NCBI GenBank assembly: GCA_024137785.1
Contig: JAHRHZ010000021.1
Location: 25,995,321-26,059,320 of the forward strand
Reading direction: 5' to 3'
Length of the DNA: 64,000 nt
From: Ginglymostoma cirratum
Taxonomy: Eukaryota
Shown here: piece by piece, positions 1-57,402 of the stretch
Layout of the letters: each line of letters starts with the position of its first letter
Numbering within the stretch: the stretch's first letter is position 1
Program-made: the position numbers and the translations under genes
Notes under the pieces: generated by a model
Databases searched by the model: none
Seen by the model: the letters and a program-made list of their open reading frames with translations, nothing else
What the model was told of the DNA's origin: nothing

Positions 1-247
1 GGAAAATTACTTGTTAGCGGGTAGCCAATCTGACACCGAGCCAGTCTCCCTTAACACGGTTCTAGATCAGGATAATCCAGACCTCCGGCTGTTTTAAAAG
101 TTCTGTCCCTGTTATCAATGAACCTGACATGCCATCATCAAAGATAATCGGAACTGCAGATGCTGGAGAATCCGAGGTAACAAGGTGTAGAGCTGGATGA
201 ACACAGCAGGCCAAGCAGCATCATAGGAGCAGGAAAGCTTGACGTTT

Positions 248-647
248 NNNNNNNNNNNNNNNNNNNNNNNNNNNNNNNNNNNNNNNNNNNNNNNNNNNNN
301 NNNNNNNNNNNNNNNNNNNNNNNNNNNNNNNNNNNNNNNNNNNNNNNNNNNNNNNNNNNNNNNNNNNNNNNNNNNNNNNNNNNNNNNNNNNNNNNNNNNN
401 NNNNNNNNNNNNNNNNNNNNNNNNNNNNNNNNNNNNNNNNNNNNNNNNNNNNNNNNNNNNNNNNNNNNNNNNNNNNNNNNNNNNNNNNNNNNNNNNNNNN
501 NNNNNNNNNNNNNNNNNNNNNNNNNNNNNNNNNNNNNNNNNNNNNNNNNNNNNNNNNNNNNNNNNNNNNNNNNNNNNNNNNNNNNNNNNNNNNNNNNNNN
601 NNNNNNNNNNNNNNNNNNNNNNNNNNNNNNNNNNNNNNNNNNNNNNN
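248..647. other. Assembly gap (400 N)
   Basis: Run of N; same length as the second gap, so probably a placeholder size. Confidence 0.99.
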
Positions 648-686
648 GGAGCTGGATGAACACAGCAGGCCAAGCAGCATCATTTT

Positions 687-714
687 CTGATGAACGGTCC
701 AGGCCCGAAACGTC
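687..714 (+). ncRNA. Minimal type-I hammerhead ribozyme motif (family A)
   Basis: CUGAUGA-A-CGGUCCAGGCCC-GAAA-CG-UC; core intact, one mismatch at base of stem II. Confidence 0.7.
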
Positions 715-2918
715 AAGCTTTCCTGCTCCTATGATGCTGCTTGGCCTGCTGTGTTCATCCAGCTCTACACCTTGTTACCATGCTATCATCAAACTGAGGT
801 TTTGCAGCCAACTTTAGGTTGGACTGATGGTCTGCCACAAACTAGCCCTATATACGCACGCGTTTTCCCAACAGTTCCAACTCAAAATGCTAACTTTTAG
901 CATAAGGGGAAAGGCATCTTGAAGAACCCTGTTTTTGTTCACATTAAAGGATTGAAAAGGATGTTGAGGAAGTACTGAGATTGAGTAGAAAGGGTTAAGT
1001 TTATTTCACTTGTCTTTAGCACACCTTGAAATTAGATAAGAACCTGGCTTTTCCGGCAATTGCTTCACATTCCAGATCAACTGGCATGGAATAGAAAGTG
1101 AGATGTTTACAAATAAATGCAGATACTTCTATATTTCTATCTTTAGCGTCCTTCAACATTAAGTGTGAATGATGTCAGAGCAAGTGAAAGCTTTAATCAA
1201 ACTAACTCTGTATTAAAATGCAACACTTCCTCGCTGGTATTGAATGTGCCAGTATAATATATCTTAAAAACTATAAAGTTCAAAAAATGAAACATCAATA
1301 TAGAAATTAAAGGAGATAACACTGTGGAGTTCAAAGTCTGGAGAGTCAGTTGGTAATGATTTTCCCAAAAGTGAAATATAATTTATAAACACTGGCATCT
1401 GCGCAAGTAAAAAGAATTGTCAGAAGTAAATAAAGAATTAATTACTTTTTCTGGCCATAATGTTTTATCTTCACAGGTGAGAAACATCTTTCGGCTCTGA
1501 ATCAGTTGATTACAGATCCCCACCAGTCATTTTGTAACACAGAAAAAGACAGTTTTAAACTGCAAAGCAAAGCAAAATGGTTAAATTACAGTAAAAGGGG
1601 ACATTGAAATGAGTTAATCACTGAACAACTTTTTTAAAATCAAAAATTATTTCTACAAGAAAGGTGAAACAAGTAAGTTCAAGAAAAAGTATGTTCCTTA
1701 ATTCCTAGCACAAGTTCAAAATAAATAGTCCTTTTCCCATAGTTATTAGCAAGCTCATTTAAGCATCGTGAAGACTGGCTAAAATATGCACCATTTAATT
1801 TCTCAACTTCACAATTGGGAATTGTCACTCAGAGATTGGTGTAATTGGTAAACAAAACGATAAGACTTTGTTGCCTGGTTATAGTAACAGATAAATATGA
1901 TTCATACAGTACTTTAATTATGTCATAAGTTGGCTCAGTCAGCTTTATTCTCCATGTAGTACACTGGTATAGTATTGCCAACACAGCAATTCATGAAACA
2001 AGAAGCAAAATTACTTCTCATGAGATCTCTGTGCTCATATCTGGGTCTGTACCTTAAATAGAATAGTGTATCTTTTTGACAAAGCTTCTTGCCATATGCC
2101 CTTATCTCTTCCTAATGATGTTTGCTGTTATTATCATTATTTCCCCTGAAGTACTATACACTATTTTACTGCAAATTGACATGACCGAGTACATACTCAA
2201 GCTAGCTAAAGCTGCTCATCAGAGACAAGTACAGAATATTATAGGAAACACGCATCTACACCCACACAGTTTGTTTCTAAGCAGCTCAGTTCTCCAGAAC
2301 ACTAAGTCTTTCCACACTTATGCAAAGAGACTGGCTTTTTGCCAAAGCTTGGCTTCTGTTCAAGTGCTCAATCTGTTTAGAATTCCCAGGTGCAAATGTA
2401 TTTTCAAGCCTATTCATGGTTATTTGCATTTTTTCTGCTTATTGCTTTGAATTGTGAACAATCAGCTTGCTGCATGTTGCAAAGTTTTTCCACATTAGGT
2501 CATTTTTATATGGTCATGGGCTATCAATAAACCATTCACAGAGACAACAATCATGCCTTCCTGGGACAATTTCAGTGATCACTATTTTACTGAAATATTT
2601 CAGGATCGTGCACGTGCAATGTGTATATATAAGCATTAGGTTCAAGTTACAATATATACTATAGGTTCTGTCTAGCCCAATTGGAAAAACACAACAATTC
2701 TACTTCTTAAATTAATGGATATCAGTCTGTCTGTCTACAAAAACCTTGGCTGTACACTCCCAATCCGGTAAATCCCAAGATTCTACTCCACCTTAAACAC
2801 ACAATTTTGTCCTTCTCCTCATTTATAGGTTGCTGTCCTTAAAAGAAATATAAGAAAAGAAAGTATATCTGAAGAATCTTTCACATCCCATGAAATTGTT
2901 GATTATTGATGAATTATT

Positions 2919-3155
2919 GATGAACCTGTGGAATTCATTGCCACGGAGCGCAGTGGAGGCCGGGACGTTGAATGTCTTCAAGGCAGAGATTGATAAATTC
3001 TTGATCTCGCAAGGAATCAAGGGCTACGGGGAGAGTGCGGGTAAGTGGAGTTGAGATGCCCATCAGCCATGATTAAATGGTGGAGTGGACTCGATGGGCT
3101 GAATGGCCTCACCTCCCCTCCTACGTCTTATGGTCTTATGGTCTTATGGTCTTAT
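2919..3155 (+). mobile_element. CR1-clade LINE 3' end
   Basis: ctgtggaattcattgcca...gggctgaatggcct tail ending in (tcttatgg)n octamer repeat. Confidence 0.85.
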
Positions 3156-4299: not shown

Positions 4300-4472
4300 C
4301 AGGTAGGCTCAGCTCACTTGGCTGGACGGCTGGTTTGCGATGCAGGGTTCAAGTACTGCACCAGCTGAGGCTACCATAAAGGATTCTCCTTCTCAACTTC
4401 TCCACTCACCTGAGGCATGGTGACCCTCAGGTTAAACCACCACCAGTTGTCTCTCTCTAATGACAGAGCAGC
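4300..4472 (+). mobile_element. tRNA-derived SINE (degenerate)
   Basis: A-box-like agctcacttgg and B-box-like gggttcaagt; related reverse copy at ~58025-58185. Confidence 0.55.
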
Positions 4473-5112: not shown

Positions 5113-5476
5113 TCTTGTCGGATCTTATTCTAAATCCAAGTTCCACACAGCCCTGAATATCTTAACTAACTATTAAACTATACACTCGCCACTTATGTTT
5201 TTTTTTGCCTTAGCTCTTTTTTTGTGCTTAGCTGTTTGTTTCTACTGGGCTTGTACTTCCCTCTCTCTTGCTCTCCTCCATTTTGTCCATTAATCTCTGG
5301 TTCCTTTGTCTTAGACCATCACATTCCTCCTCATGTTCTTCTTTGCCACATCTGTTCTTATCATTTGTGTAATAACAACCGAAAGAACTGCGGATGCTGT
5401 AAATCAGGAACAAAAACAGAAGTTGCTGGAAAAGTTCAGTAGGTTTGGCAGCATCTGTGAAGAAAAAATCAGAGTT

Positions 5477-5506
5477 AACTTTTTGGGTCCAGTGACTCTT
5501 CCTCAG
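5477..5506 (-). ncRNA. Hammerhead motif (family B, degenerate)
   Basis: Minus strand gagtt-CUGAGGA-A-GAGUC-ACUG-GACCC-AAAA-AG-UU-aactc; 5-bp stem I, but G12 is mutated. Confidence 0.55.
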
Positions 5507-5521
5507 AACTCAGCTCCAGTT

Positions 5522-5551
5522 CTGAGGAAGGGTCACCGGACCTGAAACATG
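5522..5551 (+). ncRNA. Hammerhead motif (family B, degenerate cleavage triplet)
   Basis: agtt-CUGAGGA-A-GGGUC-ACCG-GACCU-GAAA-CA-UG-aact. Confidence 0.6.
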
Positions 5552-7725
5552 AACTCTGATGTTTTTCTTCATAGGTGCTGCCAGACATGTTGAGCTTTTC
5601 CAGCAACTTCTATCTTTGTTTCTAATCATTTGTGTACCTCCTTTACCTTCATTTCTTATTTGCCCTCTTTGTCATCCACTCTGACTTACAAATTTGCTTT
5701 CCTGATCATCTTTTGCTCATTCAAGAATCCAAAAGTACTTCTTTTACCAGCCTCCTGTTCAGAGGGGCACAAATGATAATCGAAAGAAAAGCAAAATATG
5801 CTTAATTTTATTTTGAGATCCATAATGTTAAACAAGGAAGCAATCCAGGTCTACCAAGCAAGGATCCAAATGTACCATCTGCATCCAGGGAACTGTTTAA
5901 AATTAGTACAACATGGTAACAAAAATATTTTCTGCAGAAGCACTAAATTAGCCATTCAGCAAAAATAATCTTCATCTACTGTCACTAGTGTGAAAGGGTA
6001 TTTAAATAGGAAATAAGAACTCCTGTTACATTTATCTGCAGAGAACCAAATACTTTCATGGTAAAACAAAAGGTTCAATCCCAGTATTTACCATTAGGAG
6101 CAATATTTTTTAAAAATGCTTTTTGATTCCATATTTTAAATCATAATTATTCAAAATGTTATTTAAAACTAAAATTAAAAAGAAAGCTAGGTGGAGTAGA
6201 GCCAATTGCTTCTTAACAAATCCATTTTAATCACTCTTGCAAGTACAGTGACATTTGCACTAAAATGTTGCATCAATCCACTGCTACATGTAGGTTAATT
6301 TTAAATCAAGTTTAATTGTCTCAATGACTGATATAAGAGAAATCATTTATGGGAATGACTGAGTCAGTCAATCGAGTTGTTTGAGTCCTGTGTCTGTAAT
6401 GTGTAAGATAGCTGTAGCCATTAGTTCAAAACCTCTTGGGTGGACTTGACACAGGGCCCTCACAGCTGATAAATCTCATCAGTCAGGTTATGTTTTCTCT
6501 GAGTTGGTTTTCTGACAAGAATATGCTGACCTTTTTAAGGCACTATCTTGTGAGACTATAATATGGATTTCATCAAACTCATTAGGAGTTCTAACTGTAT
6601 GAAAGTTTGCACAGCCTGTGAGTTACACTCTTCGACTGTGCCTAGAGTGCAGCTATGAATAAGTCAAACTCCTTGACAAAATTTCATTTGTACCTTTTTG
6701 CATTGAATGTATGAACATTACTGATTGATAACAAGATTTTTAAAAAATGGTGTAAATGGAAAGGCCACAGACAAAGCATTACATCAACAAAATATACCTG
6801 CTATCTCAAGCTTCAGTGCCTTTATTCAAGCATATGGAATCCTTGAATTTATAGATAAATGCAGAGTGCAGAAGTCTAAATGTGTTACAAATTCATCTTT
6901 CAAATTTGTTGATATTTTGTTGTCAGCGCAAATTATCATTATCTCCTGCAATAGTGAGCATGTTGAGGTTAATCAGCATGTAAGACGGAATATTACAGAA
7001 TAAATGAGGGGATTTAGGTATACCGTAAAATAATGCAAATATCACAAATATTGAGTGCTAATCTAATTCATGAAGGATGGCAGCGTACAAAAACAACTGT
7101 TTGGCTTTGCCTCATATCTTTGTTACTTCTCAAAGTAACCATGCATGGAGTTTTTCTACCAAATACACTGAAGTCTCCTAAAATATCTTACTTTATATCC
7201 TGTTTCAGGGGTGGGCTTGTATGGATTGCCAACGTTGAATGAGAAAAATTTCCCCAGTTACAGAATGTCATTTCAAGGTCTTTTTCTAAGCGATGGAAAA
7301 TCGCCTAAAGTTTCTTGAGCATTCACACATACAGTCATTCATACTGAATAACGCTTTTACATTGTCTCTGCAATCTCATCTCATATCATTTCCCCAGTCT
7401 TCATCCTCCCAAGAAACATTCCATGTAGATCTTCAAAACTAACTTGCACAAGTTTTACTTTTGCATCTGTTCAGTTATCAGTTATTTATGTCTATCAGTG
7501 TTGACAAGGCCAGTTATTAATGGCTAACCAATCTAAGTGTCTAAATCCTTATCAGGCTATTGGACCACAGGGTTGTTCATTGGTGTGACTTCTCTTCTAC
7601 ATCCAGATGCTAACATGTATCTTAATTAGGCAAGGTTAAATGAAATAGTATCATAGCTTTTGGTATGCTTGTTTGTTAATGTATCCAGTTGCACAATCAC
7701 TTTTGCAGAGGCCTAATTTGACCAT

Positions 7726-9180
7726 GGAGACAGTTGGGACTGCAGATGCTGAAAGCTACAGTCAATAAATGTGGATCTAGAAATGCACAGCCAGTCAGAG
7801 AGAATCGAGGAGCAGGAAAGTTAATGTTCTGGCCTGAAACCTTTTGTCAGGACTGGGAGGTGGAGAGGAGCCCAGAAATAAATAGAGGGAGGGGTTGGGG
7901 CTGCAGGGGGAGTAGGTGAGTTGGAGATATGTCGAAGCAGGTAGAGAGTTATTGTGGTTGGTCATTGGGAAGGGTGGAATGGATAGGTGAGTCAGAAGAT
8001 AGATGAGTCAGTGGGAAGGGAAATATCATTATGGTGGTTGGGTCTGATTGTCAGTAGTGGAAATGTCGGACGATGATGCTTGTATTCAAAGGTTGGTGCG
8101 GTGGTATGTGAGGAACAAGGGGACTCTATCCTTATTGTGGTTGAGGGGAGAGGGCTTGAGGGCAGAAGCATGGGATATGGGGGAGATGTGGTTGAGGGCA
8201 TCCTTAATAACAGAGAAGGGGAAACGATGGTCTCTAAAGATATCTGGGAAGTCCTAGAGTAGAACGCCTCATCCTGGGAGCAGATGCGGCAGAGACAGAG
8301 GGATTGTGAGTATAGGATAGAATTTTTACAGGAGGTATAGTGGACTAACCTCGGAATGCAACGCATCACCCTCTGACATTTCCACCACCTACAATCAGAC
8401 CCCATCACCAAACAGATATTTCCCTCCCCACCCTGTCCGCTTTCCACAGGGACTGTTCACTCCACGACTCCCTCATCAGCTCCACACTCCATACCTACCC
8501 CTCCACCACACCCAGTACCTTTCCCTGGAGAGACCATCCACAGGAGGTGCTACACCTGCTCCCATTCCTCCCCTCTCATCTCAGTCCAAGGCATCAAACA
8601 ATCCTTCCAAATCCGGCAGAGATTCACCTGCACGTATCTAACCTCATCTAATGTATCCGTTGCTCCCGATGTGGTCTCTATAACAGGCAGACCAAACGCA
8701 GACTCGGGAACCAGTTCATGGAGCAGCTGTGCTCTGCATGCACCAACCAACCCCACCTTCTGGTTGCCATCCCCCTTCCACTCCCCTGGCAACATGTCCA
8801 TCCTTGGCCTCCTCCACTGTCAGAGTGAGGCCAAATGTAAACTAGAGGAACAACATCTGATATTTCACCTTGGGATCTTACAGCCCAATGGACTCAATAT
8901 TGACTTCACCAGCTTCAAAATCTCTCCTCCCCCAAACTGTCCATCCTCTATCTGCTCCACGCTTCCCACTGACCAACCACAATAACCATCTACCTGCCTC
9001 CACCTACTTCCATCTGATGTACCCTCCCCCAGCCCCACCCCTCTCCCTTTATTCATTTCTGGCACCCCTGCCCCTTCCTAGGGTTCCCAGACGAAGGCTT
9101 TCAGCTCAAAATGTTGACTTCCCTGCTCCTCGGATGCTGTCTGACTGGCTGTGCTTTTCCAGCTCCACATTTATTGACCA
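7726..9180. mobile_element. Penelope-like element remnant in fold-back arrangement (minus arm 7726-~8340, plus arm ~8343-9180)
   Basis: Minus-arm translation RICSQDEAFYSRTSQ and plus-arm MSILGLLHCQSEAKCKLEEQHLIFHLG match the PLE at 28.3-30.7 kb; both ends are PLE 3' termini; perfect 12-bp TSD taatttgaccat at 7714-7725 and 9181-9192. Confidence 0.88.
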
Positions 9181-10067
9181 TAATTTGACCATATCCACTT
9201 TTCAGGCTTACTACATGTGGCATCACCTAAATATGATCTTACTGTTGGTATGTGTACATTGACATAATTTAAATTCATTAGCGATATATACATATTAATC
9301 TTCTACACACAAATTCACACACACACATACACATGTGGCTTAAGAATTAACTATAAGATGGTACAAAGTCGAGAGCGATTGGAAGAACCAGAGACAATGT
9401 GGGAAAGAAAAATGTTTTGTAGTGAGTGGTTCAGACTTAGAATACATTTCTGATAGGATGATGAATATAGATTCAATTACAGTTTCAAAAGTGAATGAGA
9501 AAAATACTTGCAGAAAAATTTTGGCATTTGGGAAAAATCAGGAGAGTGGAATTATGAAAACGGTTTGTCAGAAAAGCTGATACAAACTTGGTAGGTCGAA
9601 TTGCCTCCTCCAAATTCCTGTTTCTATAATTCTCCAGATGGCTAAACAGAAATAAATAACCTTGAGCCATTGAGCTGACAATGAATTTTATGATATCAAA
9701 ACAATGTCTGAACATCCCAAAATTATATCACTGCCAAGGTGATCTAGGCTTTGCACACCTTGTTCTGGTGGCATTCCTTTGTACTCCTTTTGAACTGATA
9801 CTATTTATGGGATATCATATGTCTGTTCAAAAATATTCTTATCACCAAATGACAGATAGGTAAAAGTTGTTAGGATGTTTCATATTGGCAATTATGAAAA
9901 CTAATGTAGTTTATAACATATCTCACCAAGTCTTTGAGGAGGTGCGATTTGGCTTTTAAAGCACAATAAAGATGTTAGATTTTGTCTGGATCTAAAAGTT
10001 ACTTCGGCTGTAACAACAAGGGAGCAGGAGGCATCAGTATAAAGAATAAAAACATGAGATGGATGAT

Positions 10068-10285
10068 CAGAGATAGAAATAACTGCCGATGCTGGAGTCT
10101 GAGAGAACACAGTGTGGAGTTGGAGGAACACTGCAGGCCAGGCAGCATTAGAGGAGCAGGAAAGCCGACGTTTCCGGTCAGGACCCTTCTTCAGAAAATG
10201 AAGGGTCTCAACCCAAAGCAGCAACTTTCCTGTTCCTCTGATGCTGCCTGGCCTGCTGTGTTCCTCCAGCTCCACACTGTGTTAT
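10068..10285. mobile_element. PLE-terminus-derived fold-back element, family A variant
   Basis: ~85-bp inverted arms centred near 10197; degenerate 14-bp TSD atgagatggatgat (10054-10067) / ataagttggatgat (10286-10299). Confidence 0.88.
10167..10194 (-). ncRNA. Hammerhead motif (family A)
   Basis: Minus strand CUGAAGA-A-GGGUCCUGACCG-GAAA-CG-UC. Confidence 0.65.
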
Positions 10286-11699
10286 ATAAGTTGGATGATA
10301 GCAAGTTCTTTTTTTCCCCACAGAGAATTCTCAGCCTCTGGGATGGTAAACCTAAAATTGTGCTAGGTATGGATTCACTATAAATGAAAGGAAAATAATT
10401 CTTGTGAGTCAAGACAATGTCCAGTTGTAGAAGCTAGGTGGGGCATCATTGTAATTGGTGTTACAATCATCATAGTCACTTATATTTTACTTAATTGCCA
10501 GTGTTAGAGAAAATTTTCCCTGAGTCTAGTTCCTAAGTTGGTCTGAGGGTTTTTCTCTGCCCAATGTGACTCTCCAGGATACCACATGTTGGGGAAAGAG
10601 GATGATGATTCATGTTGTCTTAATGGGACATTGGTGGCCTCTTCTCTATTACTTAATCTCATATGAATCTGAAGATGTATATGCCTTTCTCCAAAGGAGG
10701 AAACCTGCTTTGAAATGGCACTTCCTTCAAGGTTCTTAATTTCAGAGAAGTTATTGTTACCAGAATAGTATGTAATTTTATTTAAAACTTAAACATTTTC
10801 TACTATGCATTTCCCCAGCAACATTAGTGCCCTTCAATAACCTTACAATCAAAAGCTCTGCCCAATATTAGAGAAATGACAGTCATTATTCAGTCACCCA
10901 GTCACTAATTATTCAAGAATGACTGTAAACCAGTCATGGTTTTAACAAGCTACTTGAAGTGACATCTTCTGAAACTTAACAACTACTCATACATATATAT
11001 TTGGTACGGTTGCCCTCAGTAAAGATCAATAAAAGCAATTATTTTTGATACTGTTTTTGTTTATAAGCAAGACTGATCTTTCTTGGCAGTTAGACGATCT
11101 TTTTAGTGTAGAAAACATTACTCATCAAAGGGAATTGGTTATTTTCCTTTGCAGAGCAACCAATCTTGGGAATGAAGTGTTGATTTTCTGCAAGAAATAG
11201 CCCTCCCACAATTAGAATCAATTGATTTCAGCAGGCAGCTACTCAGTAATTGCATGAAAGATGGTGACAGGAAATAAGTTTAGGTTGTCACCTCAAAGAT
11301 TAAAGTCAGCTAAAAAGATGAGTGTTTTGACAATGGCAGTGCAAAAATGTTTTCCGTAACTACAAGTTAATAGAGATCCATGGATTTTGAAAACAATCAT
11401 GTATGAACTTATCTTCTAGGCAGATTAAACAAATGCATTTACAAATGAACACATTGTAACTAAAAATGTAACACCACCAGTTCAGGAATTATTTAAACTG
11501 AGAAATTGACAATTTCAGGTAGTACATAAATAAAAACTACAGCTTGCAGTACCCCTTGCAAACTTAATTTTTGATCAGAACTATGTCAATCTCGTAGTGA
11601 AAATCACTTGTATTATCTTCCCCAGTAACCATCATTAACCATGCTGTCCTATTTTTGGAAGTCCAATTAGCATTCCAAGTGGTTTTAGAATAAACTTGT

Positions 11700-11835: not shown

Positions 11836-11847
11836 TATAGTCTGGAC

Positions 11848-15647: not shown

Positions 15648-15787
15648 TGAGGAAGGGTCACCGGACCCGAAATGTTAACTCTGTCTTTTCCTTCACAGAT
15701 GCTGCCAGACCTGGTGAGCTTTTCCAACAACTTTGTTTTTGGTCCTGATTTACAGCATCCGCAGTTCTTTCTTTCAACTTTTATTCA
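15648..15787 (+). mobile_element. Single-arm family B PLE terminus with hammerhead remnant and tail
   Basis: Begins tgaggaagggtcaccggacccgaaatgtt; perfect 10-bp TSD gtaggtccct at 15638-15647 and 15788-15797 inside the CR1. Confidence 0.88.
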
Positions 15788-16512: not shown

Positions 16513-16666
16513 AGAGAGAAATCTCCATTCTGGAATCAGGTCACTGGACCCAAAACGGTAACCCTGATTTCTCTCCACAGGTGCTGTCAGACCTGCAGAG
16601 CTTTTCCTGCAATTTCTGCTTTTGTTTCTGATTTCCAGCATCTGCAGTTCTTTCAGTTTTTTAGGG
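16513..16666 (+). mobile_element. Family B PLE terminus with tail
   Basis: ggtcactggacccaaaacg...ccagcatctgcagttc; TSD aataaatgg at 16504-16512 and 16667-16675. Confidence 0.82.
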
Positions 16667-21429: not shown

Positions 21430-22295
21430 CACACCTCCCAAATCTGACCCCCCTCTTAACATTCTTGTGTAGGCTTAAATCACTTAGAGATGCTAGATGC
21501 TAGAGTCAGAGTCAATACAGTGTGGAGCTGGAGGAACACAGCANNNNNNNNNNNNNNNNNNNNNNNNNNNNNNNNNNNNNNNNNNNNNNNNNNNNNNNNN
21601 NNNNNNNNNNNNNNNNNNNNNNNNNNNNNNNNNNNNNNNNNNNNNNNNNNNNNNNNNNNNNNNNNNNNNNNNNNNNNNNNNNNNNNNNNNNNNNNNNNNN
21701 NNNNNNNNNNNNNNNNNNNNNNNNNNNNNNNNNNNNNNNNNNNNNNNNNNNNNNNNNNNNNNNNNNNNNNNNNNNNNNNNNNNNNNNNNNNNNNNNNNNN
21801 NNNNNNNNNNNNNNNNNNNNNNNNNNNNNNNNNNNNNNNNNNNNNNNNNNNNNNNNNNNNNNNNNNNNNNNNNNNNNNNNNNNNNNNNNNNNNNNNNNNN
21901 NNNNNNNNNNNNNNNNNNNNNNNNNNNNNNNNNNNNNNNNNNNCTAAGTGATTTAAACCTACACAAGAATGTTAAGAGGGGGGTCAGATTTGGGAGGGTT
22001 GGTCATGGGATGAGGCTGGGGGTGGGGAGATTTTGAAACTTGTAAAGTCCACATTAAGACCATTGGATTGTAGGCTCCCGAGGCAGAATATGAGGTGCTG
22101 CTCCTCCAGTTTCCGCGTGGTGTCGTTGTGACACTGGAGGCGGCCCAGGATGGACATGTCACCCAGGGAGTGGGAGGGGGAGTTGTATAGCTGCTGCTAT
22201 ACAAAGCAGTCTCCGAGCCTCTGCTTGGTCTCACCAATGTAGAGGAGGCCACATCAGGAGCAGTGGATGTGCAGGTGAACCTCTGTCTGATGTGA
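21430..22295 (-). mobile_element. Penelope-like element remnant with inverted segment, spanning gap
   Basis: 22020-22295 encodes a GIY-YIG C-terminus on minus (YIGETKQRLGD; KLEEQHLIFCLG); 21434-21487 is the reverse complement of 21944-21996; family A terminus at 21488-21543. Confidence 0.75.
21544..21943. other. Assembly gap (400 N)
   Basis: Run of N. Confidence 0.99.
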
Positions 22296-26500: not shown

Positions 26501-27654
26501 CCGCATCCCCACTAGAGAAAAAAATTCCACACCCTACAAATCGACAATAGCCCCAGACCTCAATGGCACTCCTCCCGGCTGACTGCAAACATCATCAACT
26601 AGAACCAGGTAACTGACCTGATTGATGAAGTCTTAGTTTTCAGTGTTCCACAGAAAGCCTGGACAGTCCTAAACTACTCAGAGACAGGTCAGGGAAGATG
26701 TGACCATTTGCTCCAAAAGAGGAGCATAAGGAATAGTTTATCTTGTGACTGTGGTCATGTAAGTCAGACCATTACCTATAGAAAAAACATTTGTCTCGTG
26801 AGGCATTGCATCCATTCACAACATCCATTTGTTAAATCCGTTCAATGGATCATTGATATCAATATCAAGCTATAACTGCTTCCCCAACAAAACAACAATA
26901 ACAACTAAAGTCTAGATTCTCCTGTTGTTTGGTTTTATACTCACACCCAAGAATTTGTGCTTGAGATAGACTGGTCGAGGAGAAGGCAAAGTCAAAAACT
27001 GTCATCTGATTAAATTTCTTTATAAAACTGTCTATTACATATGAAAATAAAGATTACAATACACGAATTTCACAGAAACACCAGGGTCAAAACTTAACGT
27101 GACAGTATTGAAAGACTATTTGATAAATTCTAGCGTCTAATGCTAGTTAGTCAATTCCAAATACTTCTCAGCATGTATTTCTAACATTCACATGGATAAA
27201 CATGGATTCTGCCTTGCACTGCATGTGTTTCTCGTTAGCTCTGCTCATATTGTGCCCACTGAGCTGCAGTTGTGATATCATCATAAGGTTGTTCCACAGA
27301 ACTAAAGCCCTCATCAAACATATACTAGTTGAATTATCTGGTTCTCTTCCTAGTAAATCTAATCTTGCACATTCTTCCATATATATGTATCAAGCCTCTG
27401 AGTTGCAAGGTTCTAGGTTGAAATTCCACTACAGGGCTTGCACACAAAAATACATGGCTGACATTCTTACTGAACATTGAGGGAGTGCTGCACTGCTAGA
27501 GGTACCATTTTTTGAATGTAACGTTAATCCAAGAAACCACTAGCTCTGGTGGATGTAACAGACCCACAGTACTATTTTGAAGAGGAGCAGAGAAGTTATT
27601 GTTAGTATTCTGGCCAAAATGAATCCTTCAAGCAACAGAGAAAATAAGTTATTT

Positions 27655-27862
27655 ACTTGAATAAAATCAAAAGTTTGCAGATGATGGAAATGCGAAAGAA
27701 ACACAGAGAATGTTGGAGAAACTCAGCATGTCTGGCAGCATCTGCAGAGAGAGAAACAGAATTAGCGTTTCGAGTCATACAGGACTTGAAATGTTGACTC
27801 AGTTTCTCTCTCTACAGATTCTGCCAGATATGCTGAGTTTCTGCAACATCCTTGGCATTTGT
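27655..27862. mobile_element. PLE-terminus-derived fold-back element, family B-like (older)
   Basis: Inverted arms (actcagcatgtctggcagcatctgcagagagagaaac / gtttctctctctacagattctgccagatatgctgagt) joined within the hammerhead stem II region near 27780. Confidence 0.8.
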
Positions 27863-27976
27863 TCAAAACAAATTATTTGATCAGTATTGAAACAGTGATT
27901 GTGGGCATTTTCTGTGTGCTTATTATCTGCTGTATTTCTAGAATTACAACAGTGACTACACTTCAAAAAAATGCTT

Positions 27977-28219
27977 TCTTCGGGCCTGAAACTGCATGTC
28001 CTGAAGCCACCCTCGCCTCTTTGACCTGTCTGTCTCCTCTCCACCTATCTTCTCCTTTATCCATTTTCTATCCGCCTCCCCCCTCCTCCCTAGTTATTTC
28101 AGAATCCCCTTCCTCTCCCCCATTTCTGAAGAAGGGTCTAGGCCCAAAACGTCAAGCTTTCCTGCTCCTCTGATGCTGCTTGGCCTGCTGTGTTCATCCA
28201 GCTCTACACCTTGTTATCG
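27977..28219 (+). mobile_element. Family A PLE 3' terminus with hammerhead remnant (28126-28153)
   Basis: Near-identical to 30470-30670; perfect 13-bp TSD caaaaaaatgctt at 27964-27976 and 28220-28232. Confidence 0.9.
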
Positions 28220-28292
28220 CAAAAAAATGCTTAATTGCTGTAAAACACTTTGCAATGATTCTCTGGCTGTGAAAAGTGTTCTACAAATCTAA

Positions 28293-30678
28293 ATTAACCA
28301 CGAGCCTAACCCTCCCTCTACTGACCCCTTCTCCCGCCTCCAACACACCCCCTCCTCCTGGACACCACCCCAAGGCCTCCTACCCTCCCTTGACCGCTTC
28401 ATCTCTAATTGTCGTCGAGACATCGATCGCCTCAAACTTTTCACCCCTCTCACCCACTCCAACCTCTCTCCCGCAGAACGTGCAGCCCTCCGCTCCAATC
28501 CCAACCTCACCATAAAACCTGCGGACAAAGGAGGCGCTGTTGTAGTATGGCGTACTGACCTCTACATCTCGGAGGCCAGGCACCAACTCTCTGACACCAC
28601 CTCCTATCACCCCCTTGATCATGATCCCACCCATGAGCACCAAACCATCATCTCCCAAACCATCCACAACCTCATTACCTCACGTGACCTCCCACCCACA
28701 GGCTCTAACCTCATCATTCCCCAACCCCGCACCGCCCGCTTCTATCTCCTTCCCAAAATCCACAAACCTGACTACCCTGGTCCACCCATTGTCTCCGCCT
28801 ACTCCTGCCCCACTGAACTTATTTCCACCTATCTGGACTCCATCTTCTCCCCCTTGGTCCAGGAACTCCCTACCTACGTCCATGACACCACCCACACTCT
28901 TCACCTCCTCCAGAACTTCCAATTCCCCAGTCCCCAACACCTCATCTTTACCATGGACGTCCAGTCCCAACACCTGCATTCCCCATGCTGATGGCCTAAA
29001 GGCCCTCCGCTTCGTCCTGTCCCACAGGCCCAACCAGTCCCCCTCCACTGTCACCACTTAGCTGAACTCGTCCTCACACTCAACAACTTCTCTTTCAATT
29101 CCTCCCACTTCCTATAGACAAAGGGGGTGGCCATGGGTACCAGCATGGGCCCAAGCTATGCCTGCCTCTTTGTAGGATACATGGAACAATCCCTCTTCCA
29201 AAACTACACTGGTCCTATACCCCATCTCTTCCTCCGTTACATTGATGACTGTTTCGGCGCTGCCTCGTGCTCCCACTAGGAGCTCGAACAGTTCATCCAC
29301 TTCACCAACACCTTCCACCCCAACCTTAAGTTTACCTGACCATCTCTAATACCTCTCTCTCCTTCTTGGACCTCTCTGTCTCCATCTCTGGCATCCACCT
29401 GGAAACCGATATCCATTTTAAGCCTACCGACTCCCACAACTACCGAGAATACACCTCCTCCCATCCACCTTCCTGTAAAAAGGCCATCCCCTATTCCCAA
29501 TTCCTTCGCCTCCACCGCATCTGCTCCCGAGATGAGGCATTCCACTCCCGAACGTCCCAGATGTCCTCATTTTTCAAGGACCGCAACATTCCGTCCACAG
29601 TGATCGAAAATGCCCTCGACCGTGTCTCCCGCATTTCCCGCAACTCATCCCCCACACCCCCTACCTGCTATAATAACCGAAACAGAATCCCTCTCGTCCT
29701 CACATACCACCCCACCCAACCTCCGAATCCAACGCGTTATCCTCCGACATTTCCGCCATCTGCAATCTGACCCCACTACCAAAGACATTTTTCCCTCCCC
29801 ACCCTTATCTGCTTTCCGGAGGAACCACTCTCTCCATGACTCCCTTGTCCGCTCCACACTCCCCTCCAGCCCTACCACCCCTGGCACTTTTCCCTGCAAC
29901 CGAAGCAAATGCTACACCTGCCCCTACACCTCCCCCCCTTATCCCCATCCCAGGCCCCAAGAAGACCTTCCACATCAAACAGATGTTCACCTGCACATCT
30001 GCCAATGTGGTATACTGCACCCGCTGTACCCGTTGTGGCCTCCACTACATCGGGGAAACCAAGCAGAGGCTTGGGGACCGCTTTGCGGAACACCTACGCT
30101 CAGTTCGCAACAAACAACTACACCTCCCAGTTGTGAACCATTTCAACTCACCCCCCTACTCCTTGGATGATATGTCCATCCTGGGCCTCCTGCATTGCCA
30201 CAATGATGCCACCCGAAAGCTTCAGGAACAGCATCTCATATTTTGCTTGGGAACCCTGCAACCCAAGGGTATCAATGTGGACTTCACAAGCTTCAAAATC
30301 TCCCCTCCCGATGACATCTCAAAACCAGCCCAGCTAGTCCCCACCTCTCTAACCATTCCTCCCACCTCAAGCCCCACCCCCATCTCCTCCCGCCGCCTTG
30401 ACCTGTCTGTCCTCCCTGGACTGACCTATCCCCCACGTTAATCCCCACCTACATTCACCTTCACTGGCTCTAACCCCGCCTCTTTGACCTGCCTGTCTCC
30501 TCTCCACCTATCTTCTCCTTTATCCATCTTCTATCCACCTCCTCCTCTCTCCCTATTTATTTCAGAATCCCCTTCCCCTCCCCCATTTCTGAAGAAGGGT
30601 CTCGACCCGAAACGTCAACTTTCCTGCTCCTCTGATGCTGCTTGGCCTGCTGTGTTCATCCAGCTCCACAACGTTTTA
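28293..30678 (+). mobile_element. Penelope-like retroelement (RT + GIY-YIG, Neptune-like), 5'-truncated, frameshifted
   Basis: IKPADKGGAVV, FYLLPKIHK, KGVAMGTSMGPSYA, LRYIDD, Cys linker CNRSKCYTC, VVY...YIGETKQRLGDRFAEH; perfect 12-bp TSD ctacaaatctaa at 28281-28292 and 30679-30690. Confidence 0.95.
30589..30616 (+). ncRNA. Minimal type-I hammerhead ribozyme motif in the PLE 3' terminus (best-preserved copy)
   Basis: CUGAAGA-A-GGGU-CUCG-ACCC-GAAA-CG-UC; perfect stem II, palindromic ACGU stem III, GUC triplet. Confidence 0.8.
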
Positions 30679-32333
30679 CTACAAATCTAAGTCTGCTTTT
30701 CTAACTTCTCTCCCTAAGGAATACACAAATCGCTTTGGTTGATACTTTTAAGTATTTAATAATAACCTATCAGATTTAAAAAATGCTTTGAATTCTTCTG
30801 GTTAATATTTCTCAGTTGACAGAAATTGTTCAGTACAGACATTTCCACACCACTCAAATTTCTTCAAATCTCTCCAGACTCTGTTCCAACACAATTTGAG
30901 GTTTTACATACAATAATCTATGTAACATACACCATGAAAACTGGGTAAAGTTAGATATCTTTAAGTTTATTTACAACACTATTTATGTGGCTATAACATC
31001 AGAGACTGACGTACACACAGGGTCTGGATTCTACCTTTACTGCTGTCTTGTAGATTGCATTCACATGCACGTTCATAGGTTCAATCAAGACTTTCAAGAG
31101 TGTATGAGATGATTTAAATAGAAATAATATGCAGGGTTACTGGAAAAGGGCGGGAAGTGCCAGTAAATCATGATACTTCAGAGAGCTAGTGCAGACACAA
31201 TGGGTGAAATCATCACCTCCTGTACTGTGACAATTCTATGATAACTGAGTGCATCACAAAGAGCATGTGACTGTTGTGATGTTGTGTAACTGTCTTAAAG
31301 GTACAGACCTGTCTAGTCTGGAATCTATTGTATAATACAAAAGGTTTGCTTAAAAAAAATTCTCAATCCACTGTCAACTTCTTGCGGTCTCTTTACTCAC
31401 CAATTTTGATGACTGTCTGATCAAGATAATTTTATTGCGAGAATTCACTGTATCAATCAACTTGAATACTTGTCAAGAATCGGTAACAAGCAATATTTAA
31501 TTAAACAAGAAATAAATTAAAATTGGTCTTCAGATGTAAAATTTCAACCTCCTGCAGCAACAAACAACATAATGCTGGTTACAATTCCTTTGAGTCAGTA
31601 CTCAGTCTTGCTCAAATTGTTCAGAAAATATCACCCATATTCTATCTTTCAGCTTATGATCTTGACAACTTAGATCTACCAACTCCAGTCATCAATTGAA
31701 AACAGTCCAATTCTGAGTCACTGGTCCAAAGAGTAGTCTGAAATCTGAACTTGCCAGAATTTTCACATTAGATCTTTCCCAGAATATATCACGGTCTTAA
31801 ACACCAGGTTAACTCAAATTAACATGGTTTGATCTCAGACAGAATGATCTCTTGAAAAATCAACTTAGCAGACTGAAGCAACAGGTTAGGCCAATAGCAA
31901 TGCAGAGGTCTAATGCATGGATACAGCAGAAATATTTGAATATATTCTGTCAAGATGGAGGATGTGCATTTAAGATTTTATTGTACCAAATATTAATTTT
32001 AATTTAATTCATCAAGGATGGAATTAACACATTAATTCATGTTAAGGAAACGTTCTTCCTTGGGAAAAGGGTATTAGATTGTCTTGAAATTCAGTGTTTT
32101 GTGACAGTGTTATATTCTTGTCAGAGCGTGAGATGCTACAGTCAATATTTGGGTGAACAAGGTATACACCTATTAGCACCAGTAGTGGAATATGCAAGAC
32201 ATGCCAGAGGAACATCTCCCCATTTAATTTTCTTACCTTTTACGTCCAAGAAATTCAATAAATATCTTCCTGTGGGTGACTAACTATACCTTCCAATTTT
32301 AAATAGATCAACTTTGTTGAAAACTTTGCCTCG

Positions 32334-33435: not shown

Positions 33436-33439
33436 ATTG

Positions 33440-36580: not shown

Positions 36581-36664
36581 AGATATTTTCACAGCTTTCT
36601 TTTCATGAGCTTTGCAAAGAATGGCTATAATGTAAGAAAATATAAAGCACACACTTATTTTACT

Positions 36665-51719: not shown

Positions 51720-53675
51720 CCAAAAAGACGAATTATTTGAGAAATCTACAGGAGTCATACAAATTGAAAGAAAGCAGCAGATCAGAGAATTGGGAGCAGT
51801 TCAGATTTCAAAAATGGAGGACAAATGGTGAAAATAAGTACAAGAGTAAGTTTGCGGGGAACACAGAAACTGATTATAAAAGTTTCTTTAAGTATGTGAA
51901 GTGAAAAAGGTTACTGAAGAAGAAACATATGTCCCTTACAATCAGAATCAGGAATATTATAAAGGGAACAAAGATGGCAGACCAATTAAATATATATTCT
52001 GATTCTGTCTTTACAAAAACAATTCAGGGAACACTGGGTCTAATGAGTGGGAGGAACTGAAGGACATCAGCATTGTTATGGAAATAAAGGGAATTAAAGA
52101 CTTATAATGATAATCCACATCACAGAGTTCTTATGTAAGTGGCCCTAGAAGTAATGGACGTATTGGCAGACATCTTTCAAGATTCTTCAGGCTCTGAAAC
52201 AGTTATTACAGTTTAAAGGGTGTAGCTAATGTAACCCCACTATTTAAAATTGGAGGTTGAGAGAAAACATGGAATTATTGACCAGTTGGCCTAAAATTCA
52301 TAGGAAAATGCTAAACATCTGTTCTAAGATATTTAACAGCAGAACATTTGGAAAAGTGACAATCAGACAGAGTCAGCACGAATTTACGAAAGGGAAAATC
52401 ACACTTGACACATCTACTGGATTTGTTCACTCACTCAAAATTGTCCAAATCACATGTAAAGCCCTCTGCATCTTCCTCACAATTCACCCTCCCAGTCAGC
52501 TTTGTGTTGTCTGCAAACTTGGAGATATTGAGGATGTATCTAGTAGAATTGATAAAGGGGAGCCAGTGGGTATGGTTTACTTGGACTTTCAGAAAGCTTT
52601 CAATAAGGTCCCATATAAGAGATGAGCATGTAAATTTTAAAGTGCATGGATTGAGGGTAGTATACAGACATTGGTAGAGAACTGGGTGGCAGACAGAAAA
52701 CAAAGAGTAGGAACGGGCATATTAAAAATGGGCCTTTTAGTGAGTGGAAGCCAGCGATCAGTGGGTACTACAGCGATCAGTGCTAGGAACGCAGCTGTTC
52801 ACAATATGCATATTAATAATTTAGAGAAGGAAGCTAAATGTAGTATCTCCAAGACTGCAGATGGCACAAAACTAGATGGGAGGGTGAGCGGTGAGGAGGA
52901 TGCAGAGATGTTTCCGTGTGATTTGGACAAGTTGAATGCGTGGGCAAATGCATGGACGCTGAAATAAAGTGTGCAGAAATGAGAAGTTATCCACTTTAGT
53001 AGCAAAAACAGGAAGGCAAATTACTATACGAATGGCAATACGTCAGGAAGGGGGACAGGTACAATAAATTGACTATAGGAATAGACATGTCTTGCTGTAA
53101 TTGCGTGGCGCCTTGAGGAGACAACACCTGGAGTATTGTGGGCAGCTCCAGTCTCCTTATCTAAGGATGGATGTGCTGGCTATGGAGGAAGTGCAACAAA
53201 GGTTTATGAGATTGATTCCTGGCATCGCAGGAATGGCATATGAAGAAAGACTGGATTTATATTCACTGGAGTTTTAGAAGAATTGCGGGGGGTGGTCGGG
53301 CAGTGAGATCTCATAGAAACCTATGAATTCTAACAGGATTAGACAGGGTGAATGCAGGAAGGATGTGAGCAAAGACTGGGGAATACAGAACCAGGGCTCA
53401 CAGTCTAAGGATACAGGGTACTCAATTTAGGACTGAGATGAGGAGAAATTTCTTCACCCAGAAAGGGGGGAACCTGTGGAATTCTCTGCCACCAAAGGAA
53501 GTTAAGGTCAAAACATGGAATGTTTTGAAAAGTTAGATATAGTTTTTAGGGCTAAAGGGATCAAAGGATAAGCAGAGAAAGTGGGAACAGAGTACTGAGT
53601 TAGATGAGAAATTCAACAGTGGTGTAGGCTCAAAGTGCCAAATTACCTGTTTGAACTCATTTTTTCTATATTTCT
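51720..53675 (+). mobile_element. CR1-clade LINE in last MDFIC intron (antisense to gene)
   Basis: YLDFQKAFNKVP, SKTADGTKLDG, CDLDKLNAWANAW; CR1 3' tail. Confidence 0.9.
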
Positions 53676-55903
53676 ACATTTAATATCAATATTGGGAAGC
53701 AGAAAAACTGCAGTATTTGAATATCCTGGTGTACTAAATTCAGGCTGGAGTGATACCAATAAAGAGGAAAAAAAAAATCATTCTACTTTCTGTTCCATTC
53801 CCAAAAACACCAAAAGCAAATATTATGCCAGTGTACATCTGGCTGTGGCAAGGAACACTAAATGAAGCACTCAATTTCCTTTCATATTTCCAAGAAAATA
53901 TTTCATCCCGCTTTGAAACGATTAAACTGGGTGTTCCTTTTCTTGACCATGTTAGGATTCTAAAAAGACCAGGATTGTAAAGTCCTTTTGAACTGTGCTC
54001 AAAGTAACCTGAGGCACCAGTATACAGGCTGGATGAAAGACACATTGAAGTCTTAGCGCGTCTGTATTCTTCACAAAATGTCAAGCACTAGTATAAATCA
54101 TTTTGCTTAACTTATACCAATGTTGGAGTTCATGAAAAATCAGTTCTTTACTTCAAAGTTAATGTGTTGATGTGATGATCAATACAATGATGAGTGTCCA
54201 TTGAAAATGATGAATTCACATGTATGTGACTAGTTCAGATCATAAATTACATATGAACCAACAAATGAGGCAAGTAGTTCTTTTGAAAACGATATCTAAA
54301 ACGTTTATCCAAAATAGCTGAAGTCTTCTAAACTGAGTTTCAATGATTTATACGATAAACAAACGATATTTGGTGATTTTATTTTTGCTTGGCAAAGGAA
54401 TTCTTTCTACTTGATTATTCAACATCAGCATCATGAAACGTTCCCTTTTCAGATTCAGAAACAAAACTTCTCCTACTCTATCATGAAAACATGTTTCCAT
54501 TCCAACTTATGTGCACAATCTAGTTGAGCAGTCAGAATTGATTTGCAATTTTCATACCACCCACTGGGACATTGCCAGTCAATGCCAGTTTTGGTTTGTA
54601 GATCCATGCAGGCCAGGTTCCAGGTATGGAATAACCAACTAACCTCACACAGGGCCAAAAAACATACCTTCAGCTGATGTGTATGGGCTTTATGTGAAGT
54701 TATGCTCCAGAGATCATTCCACTTTCACCCAGTTTTCTTTTTATTAACATACTTAACATTAACATAATTTACTCTTTCATAGATTCAAACTTTTTTTTGT
54801 AGAAGAGGCTTGTATTAAAAATAGATCATACTTGTATAACTTAAACTAAAGCAAGGATTCTAAAGAATTGCATTGGGCATTGCCTTATGATTTCTCCTAA
54901 TCAGTACACATAAATTTGACAAAAATCAGGGATGACCATTTAACTACTTTAAGCAAAGTAGTTCTAAAGTTACACCAGCCAATCTGGAAAACAAGAAGAT
55001 GTTTGCCAAAACATTTATTTGAATTGCATGTAAGTAGACTTTATACAAATTGAACAATGTGAAGACTGTTACCCAACTTAATCTTTGAACTGGAATTTTT
55101 TGCTGGACTGAAGAGAACAAATTCAAGGTTTTCCCTTAGTAGCTAATTTAAGGTTTGAACATGACATTAACATATCGTTAAGTTCATTTTTAGAACATAA
55201 ACCTTAGGCCAGCACTGTCTTAGCCAGTTATGCTGACAGAGTTCAGAGCACTCAAAGTAAATCTCCAGACATTTAGTTGTCTCACGCCAAGAATCAAAGA
55301 AAGTGTTAAGCTGAAGTCACAGACATGGTTGGGGTCCTCAGCAGGGACTTCCTCAAGTTTCATATAGCAACAGGCATTGCGATCACAACAACAATTACAG
55401 ATAGCAGGCTGGCAACAGCAAAACTAAAGAAGGCCACAAGTGATCTCAGCACAGTGACAAGAACAAAGGTGCAGAACGAAAGAAGCCCAGCAATCAGATG
55501 CAGAAAGGAAGGCACAAAATAACAAAATGAGTCCAGGAAAATAAATAAAGCCAAGATAATGAAAATGATCACATTCATTCAAATCTTCTGCCCTCATAAC
55601 ATGTTTTAAAAATTTTTAACTTGGAATCTAATTATTTTATACATGGAAACTAATGTACAAATAAACAAATTAAATATTCAAATGTTTAAATCAACTTGTG
55701 ATTTAATACAAAGACAAAAGAAAAGGTGAGAATGTGTGAGGAGCCTTGTTCCTTCAAAGTAGATAAACACATGTATATAGCAGTTAGATATTGTAAGTTT
55801 TAATTTCCTATGATATTTATAGTGGACAGCCCAACTGCACACACTGTAGTTTGCTGGATTCCTAACAGAGGTACACAAATTCAAATCAGTGTCTCAATTT
55901 TGT

Positions 55904-56107
55904 GTCAGAACTCACACGACACCAAGTTGTAGTCAAACAGGTTTACTTGAGATCACAGGCTTTCAAAGTGCTGCTCCTTTGTCAGGTGATGAAGGAGCAA
56001 CGCTTCGAAAGCTTGCGATTTCAAAAGAAAACCTGTTTGACTATAACCAGGTGTCGTGTGACTCCTGACTTTGTCCACCCCAGTCCAACACTGGCACCTC
56101 CACATCG
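55904..56107. mobile_element. Hammerhead-bearing fold-back element, family C
   Basis: ~82-bp inverted arms centred at 55985/55986 plus an ~38-nt tail on the right arm; no clean TSD; PLE origin inferred from architecture only. Confidence 0.8.
55986..56014 (+). ncRNA. Hammerhead motif (family C; C3 lost at junction)
   Basis: (G)UGAUGA-A-GGAGC-AAC-GCUUC-GAAA-GC-UU; palindromic AGCU stem III; degenerate mirror copy at 55957-55985 starts CUGA. Confidence 0.6.
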
Positions 56108-57256
56108 ATTGACAGTCATCACTCTGACAAATCATGTTTTGCCTCTTAAAACCGATGTTTGCATGTGCAGCTCAATGAGGTGGCTCCCATAAGAACAAAT
56201 CCAATCAATACCAAAGGAAAATGATCTTCTTGATAACCAGCAGCAGAGAAATGCCACTGCCAAAACACAACCACCCTCATAACAAAGAATGCACAATGGC
56301 AAAAATTGATTGGAACACAAGTAGTAAAACTGGTTTTAGTTTATTTTGATGCTCTTTAAGGTGAAGGTTGACCAAAATGAATATTTTTCTATGAAATTTC
56401 AGATAAAAATCTTGGAAATCTCACATATTAAAAAATGTGGTAAAGTTTCTTCTGTTAGAATAGTATATCTTATCTTACACTCTCAGCGTGTAGAGGTACA
56501 CGGTCTACTTTTACTAGGACAGATGTGCCAAAACACCTGCAATGCAATCAAGTGGTTGAGACTACAGAACCTAATTTATGGCAAACTCCCTGTGTCAGCA
56601 TGGAGTAGATCTAAAGAACAATAAAGTTAACAGATTGGTGTTACATACTTCAAACCTAACTTCTAAATTTTACACTACTGAGTCACTCAATTAAGTCTGT
56701 AACATGAGCATATCATCCTGTACACTTAGCAACATCGAAAATACGGAACTGAACTATGTTGAGGTGTAATTTTTAAATTTAGTACTAAGTAGGGCTTAAT
56801 GCATACTTATTTTCACCAAGACAGAGCAATTCACTGACAGGTCCATCACATTGAAAGTTCAGATAGCTTTAACTAAGTTTGAGACCCAGAAAATCTGTTT
56901 TATAATAAAATACAAAATAAAATTAGGAATACAGCATAGTCCATAGGTGGGGAGAAATATAAATTGAACAGACATTCTATGACAGATTATTCTACTTGTT
57001 ATGAAGTGAGGTCTGCACTTGAAACTGCATTCTTGTTTGTAAGCAAATTAATAGGCAATACTGGCTGGCTGGAAAACCCACAAGTGTCAGGTGGAATTCT
57101 GATTTTATACTCCACACAAATCTCTGGATTGATTTCAATGAAGAATAACAAAAAAATCAGGTGGTAAATAACTCAGAATTCTACCAATTGTACAAGTTAA
57201 CTTAAAATTGCCTCCAGTAATTCTACACATCAACAAGTGATCAATTCACAATCTCA

Positions 57257-57402
57257 GAGACAGTAGGAACTGCAGATGCTGGAGAATCTGAGATAACAAG
57301 GTGCAGAGCTGGATGAACACAAGGTCTCGGCCCGAAACGTCAGCCTTCCTGCTCCTCTGATGCTGCTTGGCCTGCTGTGTTCATCCAGCTCTACACCTTG
57401 TT
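57257..57402. mobile_element. Family A fold-back element with central deletion
   Basis: 28-bp inverted arms; hammerhead 3' half ggtctcggcccgaaacgtc; 14-bp TSD aattSacaatctca at 57243-57256 and 57403-57416. Confidence 0.88.

Follow-up and report, generated by a model that had tools for sequence, protein, structure and literature searches.

Penelope-like elements (PLEs) that carry a GIY-YIG endonuclease (EN+ PLEs) insert in a distinctive layout, in which an inverted, 5'-truncated copy stands head-to-head with the element, a tail is present on one side, and target-site duplications (TSDs) flank the insertion (PMC3846280; PMC8557442; PMC8969392). In the accessible portions of this literature, how these inverted repeats and one-sided tails arise counts as an unsettled question (PMC8557442); antisense self-priming is the printed proposal for the inverted arm (PMC3846280). 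Here we describe a 64,000-nucleotide stretch of the Ginglymostoma cirratum genome (GenBank assembly GCA_024137785.1, contig JAHRHZ010000021.1, positions 25,995,321 to 26,059,320, forward strand; hereafter the window), in which an earlier note made from the sequence alone had reported seven insertions, each built from a pair of element 3' termini set in opposite orientations, with hammerhead ribozyme motifs at or near the axis. These pairs are head-to-head 3' ends of three PLE families, termed A, B and C, with B and C assigned by motif only. The feature is real and abundant, and it is a short form of the known PLE insertion layout, not a new mobile-element class. With a probability of about 0.7, the pairs are 5'-truncated PLE insertions, each likely made anew at its landing site by priming from both staggered cuts, one at each of two internal start sites and likely on a single RNA.

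The layouts described by Arkhipova et al. 2013, Craig et al. 2021 and Schostak et al. 2008 (PMC3846280; PMC8557442; PMC2377424) share with these pairs a tail of 30-40 bp, often at one end, a TSD, and trouble in short-read assembly. Here, by comparison, the copies are usually 35-135 nt long, occur at ~58 per Mb, bear a single tail as a near-rule and have 5' ends at an initiator-like site, features not quantified in those parts of the published accounts that are accessible. In a pseudo-long terminal repeat (pLTR) of a rotifer element, a TATA and an initiator (Inr)-like motif have been noted (PMC3846280, PMC8557442, PMC2377424 group). In the anole Poseidon element PAc, both target strands are cut and extended in vitro and two internal reverse transcriptase (RT) start sites bound the tail; the protein is a predicted dimer, the hammerhead lies at the start of the open reading frame (ORF), and the start sites lie a short way into it (Frangieh et al. 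2024; PMC11167929). The accessible text of that report draws no link from the two sites to two inverted arms, nor to run-off at the RNA 5' end. Minimal hammerheads of metazoan PLEs (Cervera and de la Pena 2014; PMC4209133) have the same core as found here, with a bulged base, a helix II and no helix III, whereas the cores in the pairs are mostly truncated or decayed; in Schistosoma, the same source notes paired minimal hammerheads, on opposite strands and separated by 100-700 bp. Finally, the non-LTR retrozymes, as set out in the accessible part of a preprint (bioRxiv 10.64898/2026.07.22.740005), are likewise short, non-coding, hammerhead-bearing and pLTR-related, but they form direct tandem arrays with a hammerhead in every unit, while the elements described here stand in tandem in only 5/72 cases and give no sign of replication by units.

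Parent elements and abundance of the pairs

Self-BLAST and a repeat finder recovered all seven inverted pairs in the window, with the element 3' ends facing outward in each, and the claim of two oppositely oriented 3'-end copies per insertion therefore holds at 7/7 sites. The reported matches of families A and B to PLE 3' ends at 30589-30678 and 60640-60741 also hold, and family C, said to have the same design, is likewise a PLE end, lying behind a GIY-YIG-like motif (identified by eye) in locus L173. The family A parent is a 3.4-kb pLTR-ORF-pLTR element; among five long stretches, four have the 3' pLTR and three have both pLTRs, ~3.4 kb apart. Its broken copies give sub-threshold Pfam matches to RVT_1 (E 8e-6) and to GIY-YIG (E 4e-4), and a CxxxxCxxC linker makes the family look Neptune-like. 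A search of PDB sequences with the endonuclease frame gave no match. The family B end adjoins an endonuclease-like frame at about 60.0-60.4 kb, its motif recognized by eye. The hallmarks of EN+ PLEs are present: an RT with a C-terminal GIY-YIG domain and a repeated pLTR (both in family A), a minimal hammerhead, and an optional tail of 30-40 bp that leads into the ORF, the 34-nt tail of family A doing so in 30/35 copies fetched. At locus L280 (G000:C12:80012977-80014280), the 5' part of the family A ORF is present in two tandem copies, 537 bp apart.

The best-preserved anatomy in the window is that of a 5'-truncated family A PLE at 28293..30679 (+ strand), which retains RT and GIY-YIG remains, ends at the tail-less site, and shares 91.6% identity with a full-length copy found at another place in the genome. 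Its pLTR (30554..30616, +) holds a TATA-like box, TATTTA (30554-30559), an initiator-like A (30585) and a minimal hammerhead (30589-30616), the first two of which constitute a putative promoter. In the coordinates used below, +1 is this initiator-like A just 5' of the hammerhead, and the predicted hammerhead cut falls after +32 in families A and B or +37 in family C. A decayed family B end at 59900..60741 (+, left edge approximate) comprises the endonuclease-like frame, a decayed TATA-like box at about 60611-60620, an initiator-like A at 60643 and a decayed hammerhead.

To place the window in its genomic context, we sampled ten blocks of the 4.36-Gb source assembly (the window plus 200 kb on each side, two 200-kb and seven 50-kb blocks), with 1,188,889 readable bases in all; three further blocks (C16, C20, C99) consist entirely of N and are excluded from every count. 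The sample holds 181, 125 and 22 end fragments of families A, B and C. Same-family neighbors separated by an inner gap of <=60 nt stand head-to-head in 66 cases, tail-to-tail in one and in tandem in five, a head-to-head excess with p about 1e-18. Head-to-head pairs within 200 nt number 69, and a TSD score >=10 was reached by 30 of them, vs 0/400 shuffled flank pairs. The enrichment of TSD-flanked inverted pairs over random adjacency, on which the earlier note had staked its proposal, is thus evident, as is its claim that they are a routine insertion product, at about 58 pairs per Mb; if the sample is typical, extrapolation gives about 250,000 pairs in the genome. TSD length is 13-17 in 22/26 cases with a mode of 14, and inspection by eye of these 26 TSDs revealed no target-site motif. 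The median pair is 194 bp, yet the size range is continuous, its extremes being 122 bp and 3.5 kb. A single tail and near-perfect TSDs also mark nine longer pairs: eight of them cross N gaps, and the ninth, of 3.5 kb, has a TSD of 15 bp without mismatch. The assembly appears to break at young palindromes, such that the youngest pairs are under-counted: by loose BLAST, all 14 of the 400-N gaps in the sample (including 248-647 and 21544-21943 of the window) have a family A arm within 300 nt.

Architecture of arms, tails and junctions

The arms of a pair are not equivalent. Exactly one bears the tail in 62/69 pairs, where the tail share among unpaired fragments predicts 49% (p about 8e-13), and arm 3' ends fall at about +98 when tail-less or +132 when tailed. 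The MITE-like symmetry previously attributed to the pairs therefore does not stand: the arms are unequal, one carrying a ~34-nt tail that the other lacks. A stem joining body and tail around the first RT start site can be predicted (+51..+59 with +107..+115 in families A and B; about +70..+84 with the tail in family C), but covariation was found at only 1/12 of its pairs in A/B and 2/33 in C, and the stem is not used as evidence.

Junctions between the arms were mapped in 61 pairs and are distinct in 60, with filler in 45, microhomology of 1-3 nt in 13 and blunt joints in three. One junction alone was seen twice (2/61), at a microhomology of 3 nt, and the two pairs sharing it do not match each other at the subfamily site +48 in both arms. 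The earlier note had proposed that unique junctions would support de novo formation at each insertion, and the outcome lies on that side. Arm extents are equally informative. Among 58 one-tail pairs, 34 have a tail-less arm whose 5' end lies >3 nt beyond that of the tail arm, and in 28 the excess is >10 nt; because each arm then holds sequence that the other lacks, neither can have been copied from the other in those 34. In the extreme type, the tail arm covers +91..+132 only and the opposite arm +2..+98. Despite these differences in extent, arms within a pair agree at subfamily sites (discordant at 17/244 in family A vs 40% when shuffled, and at 18/150 in family B vs 36%), which fits an origin from one RNA or one source, and 30/31 mini arms lie within one diagnostic change of the haplotype of a long family A copy.

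The arm 5' ends form a sharp cliff at the initiator-like site: 37/122 lie at -1..+3 and just 2/122 at -40..-2, and the short mini arms are without the TATA-like box. A separate set of 29 family C loci has 11 starts at -3..+3, 14 further downstream and four that run through the TATA box. In long copies of the three families, the distance from the start of the TATA-like box to the initiator-like A at the cliff is 31, 29 and 30 nt. A G precedes arms starting at +1 in 10/17 cases vs 20/102 elsewhere (p=0.0015; 0.009 without family C), and in 3/3 such starts of the separate C set. An extra G is a mark of m7G cap copying, although our literature search yielded no citation for a cap-derived extra G. 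A step in read depth near +1 was not used as evidence for a start, since read-through of genomic minis could produce it. In a sequencing run of uncertain kind (X1), 14 contigs pass directly into poly(A) after the TATA-like motif at about position 530 of locus L271. This is a possible 3' end of PLE mRNA, upstream of the second hammerhead; were it real, the start sites of a unit-length mRNA would be confined to the region close to its 5' end, and minis would be what it yields by default.

Proposed route of formation and its alternatives

We propose the following sequence of events. The pLTR promoter, comprising the TATA-like box and the initiator-like A at +1, would start a capped RNA whose first ~130 nt hold the hammerhead, start site 1 (about +98), the tail and start site 2 (about +132), ahead of the ORF. 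The endonuclease would cut both target strands about 14 bp apart, after which the two target 3' ends would prime on different sites, one on site 1 and one on site 2. Near the RNA 5' end, the cDNAs could run at most about 100 or 130 nt, through run-off at the cap or an early stop. End-joining by microhomology or filler, followed by fill-in, would then leave two head-to-head arms, a single tail among them, within a TSD. Long arms and full copies would arise when a read-through RNA is primed at these sites in its downstream pLTR. On this view, the central position of the hammerhead reflects its place at the start of the transcript; it does not itself create the axis. Products of this kind are likely mostly dead ends.

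Two familiar processes offer precedents. In twin priming by L1, the second target strand primes on the same RNA, but the segments do not overlap and the second start is not fixed; minus-strand strong-stop DNA of long terminal repeat (LTR) elements starts internally and runs off at the cap, but is transferred rather than integrated. The pairs resemble the former in the use of a second strand on the same RNA, and the latter in the internal start and run-off. A bolder formulation, to which we assign somewhat less than an even chance, is that the roughly quarter-million mini-palindromes are integrated strong-stop products, a PLE protein dimer priming both nicks on one capped RNA and running off its 5' end. 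If true, it would account, across all EN+ PLEs, for inverted pLTRs and the one-sided tail with no need for antisense self-priming. The earlier note could not establish whether such dimers had been described; the inverted-pLTR, tail and TSD layout is in print, as the accessible text of three reports attests (PMC3846280; PMC8557442; PMC4209133), whereas a run-off reading was not found there. Our literature search, whose scope did not extend to Repbase or Dfam notes or to subscription journals, found no account of a one-site-per-arm rule or of PLE mini-palindromes as run-off products. The pairs amount to a very large natural record that separates the possible routes and makes sharp predictions for the existing in vitro system (PMC11167929).

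Several observations weigh against the proposed route or limit its reach. Junction mapping left out 8/69 pairs as long or N-containing; in 24/58 pairs the tail-less arm lies within the tail arm, as fold-back could also yield; and gene conversion, or the activity of just one subfamily in a given period, could produce the concordance between arms. Insertion does not require priming on both sides, since single-armed short insertions with a TSD exist (15/97, vs 0/150 shuffled), and the in vitro support comes from a Poseidon element while family A looks Neptune-like. Cap run-off in particular must accommodate the 83/122 arm ends that lie downstream of +3, because of which early stops or trimming must be common. 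One public poly(A) run, of unspecified tissue, showed no pile-up of molecule starts and equal strands, and a second raw run supplied only 43 reads; a search among indexed sequencing runs listed no RNA data set that contains these sequences. The prediction that full-length family A copies start at +1 mostly failed: 2/30 start at +1/+2, 15 beyond -40, three at -40..-6 and 10 further downstream. Moreover, the internal promoter of Drosophila Penelope is TATA-less, at least in the accessible part of its description (PMC2377424), and TATA use is therefore not general.

Among the alternatives, the one that survives best retains de novo two-armed insertion but ascribes the pile-up at +1 to RT stalling at the hammerhead, to an RNA processing site, or to a short non-autonomous source RNA. 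It would account for the lack of a start site in the reads and the rarity of full-length copies starting at +1, and the cliff does coincide with the 5' edge of the hammerhead. For stalling, however, the cliff is on the wrong side, as an RT moving 3' to 5' would already have passed the fold; mini haplotypes match those of long copies; and the cliff follows a TATA-like box at a spacing of 29-31 nt in all three families, whose sequences differ, with an excess of G before +1. We regard this alternative as unlikely.

Self-priming of one strand by fold-back, as proposed for rotifer PLEs in the accessible text of PMC3846280, is still less probable. Arms that share alleles, including 12 rare variants, would follow naturally from it, and 10/58 pairs are near-symmetric at the axis while the tail-less arm lies within the tail arm in another 14; but the non-nested arms of the remaining 34 exclude fold-back as a general route, and it leaves the fixed tail-less end of the second arm in 62/69 pairs without explanation.

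Lower again we rank the view that the dimers are a non-autonomous family, whether resembling MITEs (miniature inverted-repeat transposable elements) or retrozymes, that is copied as a unit. MITEs and the crocodilian 'Chompy' repeats are short, hairpin-like dispersed repeats with TSDs, and the narrow size, high copy number and TSDs of the pairs invite the comparison; in addition, two of the 61 mapped pairs have the same junction, and a query that contained a family C microhomology junction returned that junction more than once. Against copying as a unit stand the distinct junctions at the other loci and the +48 differences between carriers of the repeated one, the continuum to 3.5 kb, the ~14-bp TSDs and arms that are without a TATA-like box. 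Unlike MITEs or Chompy, the pairs are without fixed, equal terminal inverted repeats, fixed length or fixed center, their ends differing by the tail in 62/69 and their centers in 60/61, and they are of retroelement origin: the termini belong to RT/GIY-YIG elements, and no partner transposase was seen, though no separate transposase search was made. Nor do they behave as retrozymes, with five tandem vs 66 head-to-head pairs and 45/61 without a strict hammerhead core. The suggestion that the pairs are a non-autonomous class of their own accordingly fails on the junctions, the size continuum and the 30/31 mini arms near long-copy haplotypes, whereas a minor replicating subfamily of a few percent is compatible with the 61 loci.

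Finally, assembly artefact or chance neighboring of independent insertions has a negligible claim, for although every 400-N gap in the sample has a family A arm nearby and one window pair (143-778) is mis-assembled, the gap-free pairs have arms mostly 70-96% alike with unequal ends and shared TSDs, the orientation ratio is 66:1, and raw reads of one public RNA run contain strand-switch joints at the same place (+2, with >=7 partner positions among 15 joints listed), such that the inversions are not only an artefact of assembly.

Window sites, hammerheads and other palindromes

The earlier note gave TSDs of 12-15 bp at five of the seven sites; they are clear at four, weak (score 8) at 10068-10285 and 27655-27862, and a search at 55904-56107 found none. 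The pairs themselves have no strand; signs below refer to arms. The family A pair at 128..793 has a 15-bp TSD with one mismatch (128-142 and 779-793), a tail arm at 143-247 (-), a 400-N gap at 248-647, a repeated piece at 648-683, of which 649-683 duplicates 190-224, and a tail-less arm at 684-778 (+, from initiator +2); because of the gap and the repeated piece beside it, the 636-bp size of 143-778 is probably not real. The family B pair at 5355..5636 (insertion 5372-5624) consists of a tail arm at 5372-5510 (-, to +1), a 6-nt filler and a tail-less arm at 5517-5624 (+, from -1) within a 17-bp TSD with one mismatch (5355-5371 and 5620-5636). At 7714..9192, a long, diverged A-like pair (7726-9180) has a tail arm at 7726-8333 (-, with an internal deletion), an arm at 8344-9180 (+) and a perfect 12-bp TSD (7714-7725 and 9181-9192); since both arms extend into the endonuclease region, it is not a mini element.

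Shorter pairs make up the remainder. The family A pair at 10054..10299 joins a tail arm at 10068-10197 (-, to +2) through the filler AT to a tail-less arm at 10200-10285 (+, from +10), with a decayed 14-bp TSD. The family B pair at 27641..27878 has arms from +22 and +18 and a weak 14-bp TSD. In the family C pair at 55904..56106, a tail-less arm at 55904-55988 (-, to +4) meets a tail arm at 55987-56106 (+, from +9) across a 3-nt microhomology. The family A pair at 57243..57416 (insertion 57257-57402) has a tail arm at 57257-57321 (-, +67..+132 only), a tail-less arm at 57323-57402 (+, +14..+97) and a 14-bp TSD with one mismatch. An eighth, A-like site, absent from the earlier note, lies at 21486..22274 (-), where a tail arm (21486-21543) runs into a 400-N gap with endonuclease-region DNA beyond and a tangled local assembly. 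A single-armed family A insertion, read by eye at 27964..28232 (+), comprises the element at 28011-28216, a 13-bp TSD (27964-27976 and 28220-28232) and ~35 nt of filler. Additional unpaired A and B end fragments occur at 15648-15771, 16539-16661, 38101-38193, 40677-40750, 45120-45219 and 45424-45517.

The description of the pairs as hammerhead-bearing proved overstated. Cores do occur in some, but neither pair 27655-27862 (arm starts +22/+18) nor pair 57257-57402 (+67/+14) spans the CUGA box, and most cores in pairs are truncated or decayed. The sole match to a strict core descriptor in the window is the PLE copy at 30589, and an Rfam scan of the window returned no hammerhead, only sub-threshold, weak miRNA-type hairpin matches. 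Across the sample, the strict descriptor has 91 matches vs none in one shuffle; 45/61 pairs are without an intact strict core. Ribozyme motifs on both strands, as earlier claimed, do exist but are rare: both arms span the CUGA box in 7/61 pairs, and two strict cores are kept in 1/61. In any case, minimal hammerheads probably depend on a same-strand dimer, which copies on opposite strands would be unable to make. The expectation of long double-stranded RNA hairpins fares better, as folding models of the window pairs give long hairpins if transcribed, a fold predicted to hide the hammerhead motif. At the density observed, the pairs are a large potential source of RNA hairpins, and annotation can mistake them for MITEs or microRNA hairpins.

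Hammerhead cleavage was rejected as the principal source of arm ends, the main cliff lying 32-37 nt upstream of the cut. In family A, however, a second cluster of 5' ends falls at +33..+39 (cut+1..+7), with 10 arm ends vs two in the eight positions before and none in the seven after; it consists mostly of tail arms and is absent in families B and C. Subfamily indels at the cut site may bias the mapping of family A, and we treat this peak as a lead only; under the strong-stop formulation it would be a germline record of ribozyme cleavage.

Further palindromes lie outside families A, B and C. A fourth, unrelated family, recognized by eye and probably another PLE, forms longer head-to-head palindromes, 0.5-1.2 kb in size and as much as 93% alike, in which a hammerhead-like motif lies close to the outer ends (block coordinates C12 41210-41749; C21 375974-377142; C283 175751-176622; C144 35867-36511). 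In the window, 52418-52952 has inverted 110-bp arms (77% alike) about a 316-nt spacer, unrelated to A/B/C; it also matches 16716-16973 and may therefore be a 5' inversion of a LINE-type copy.

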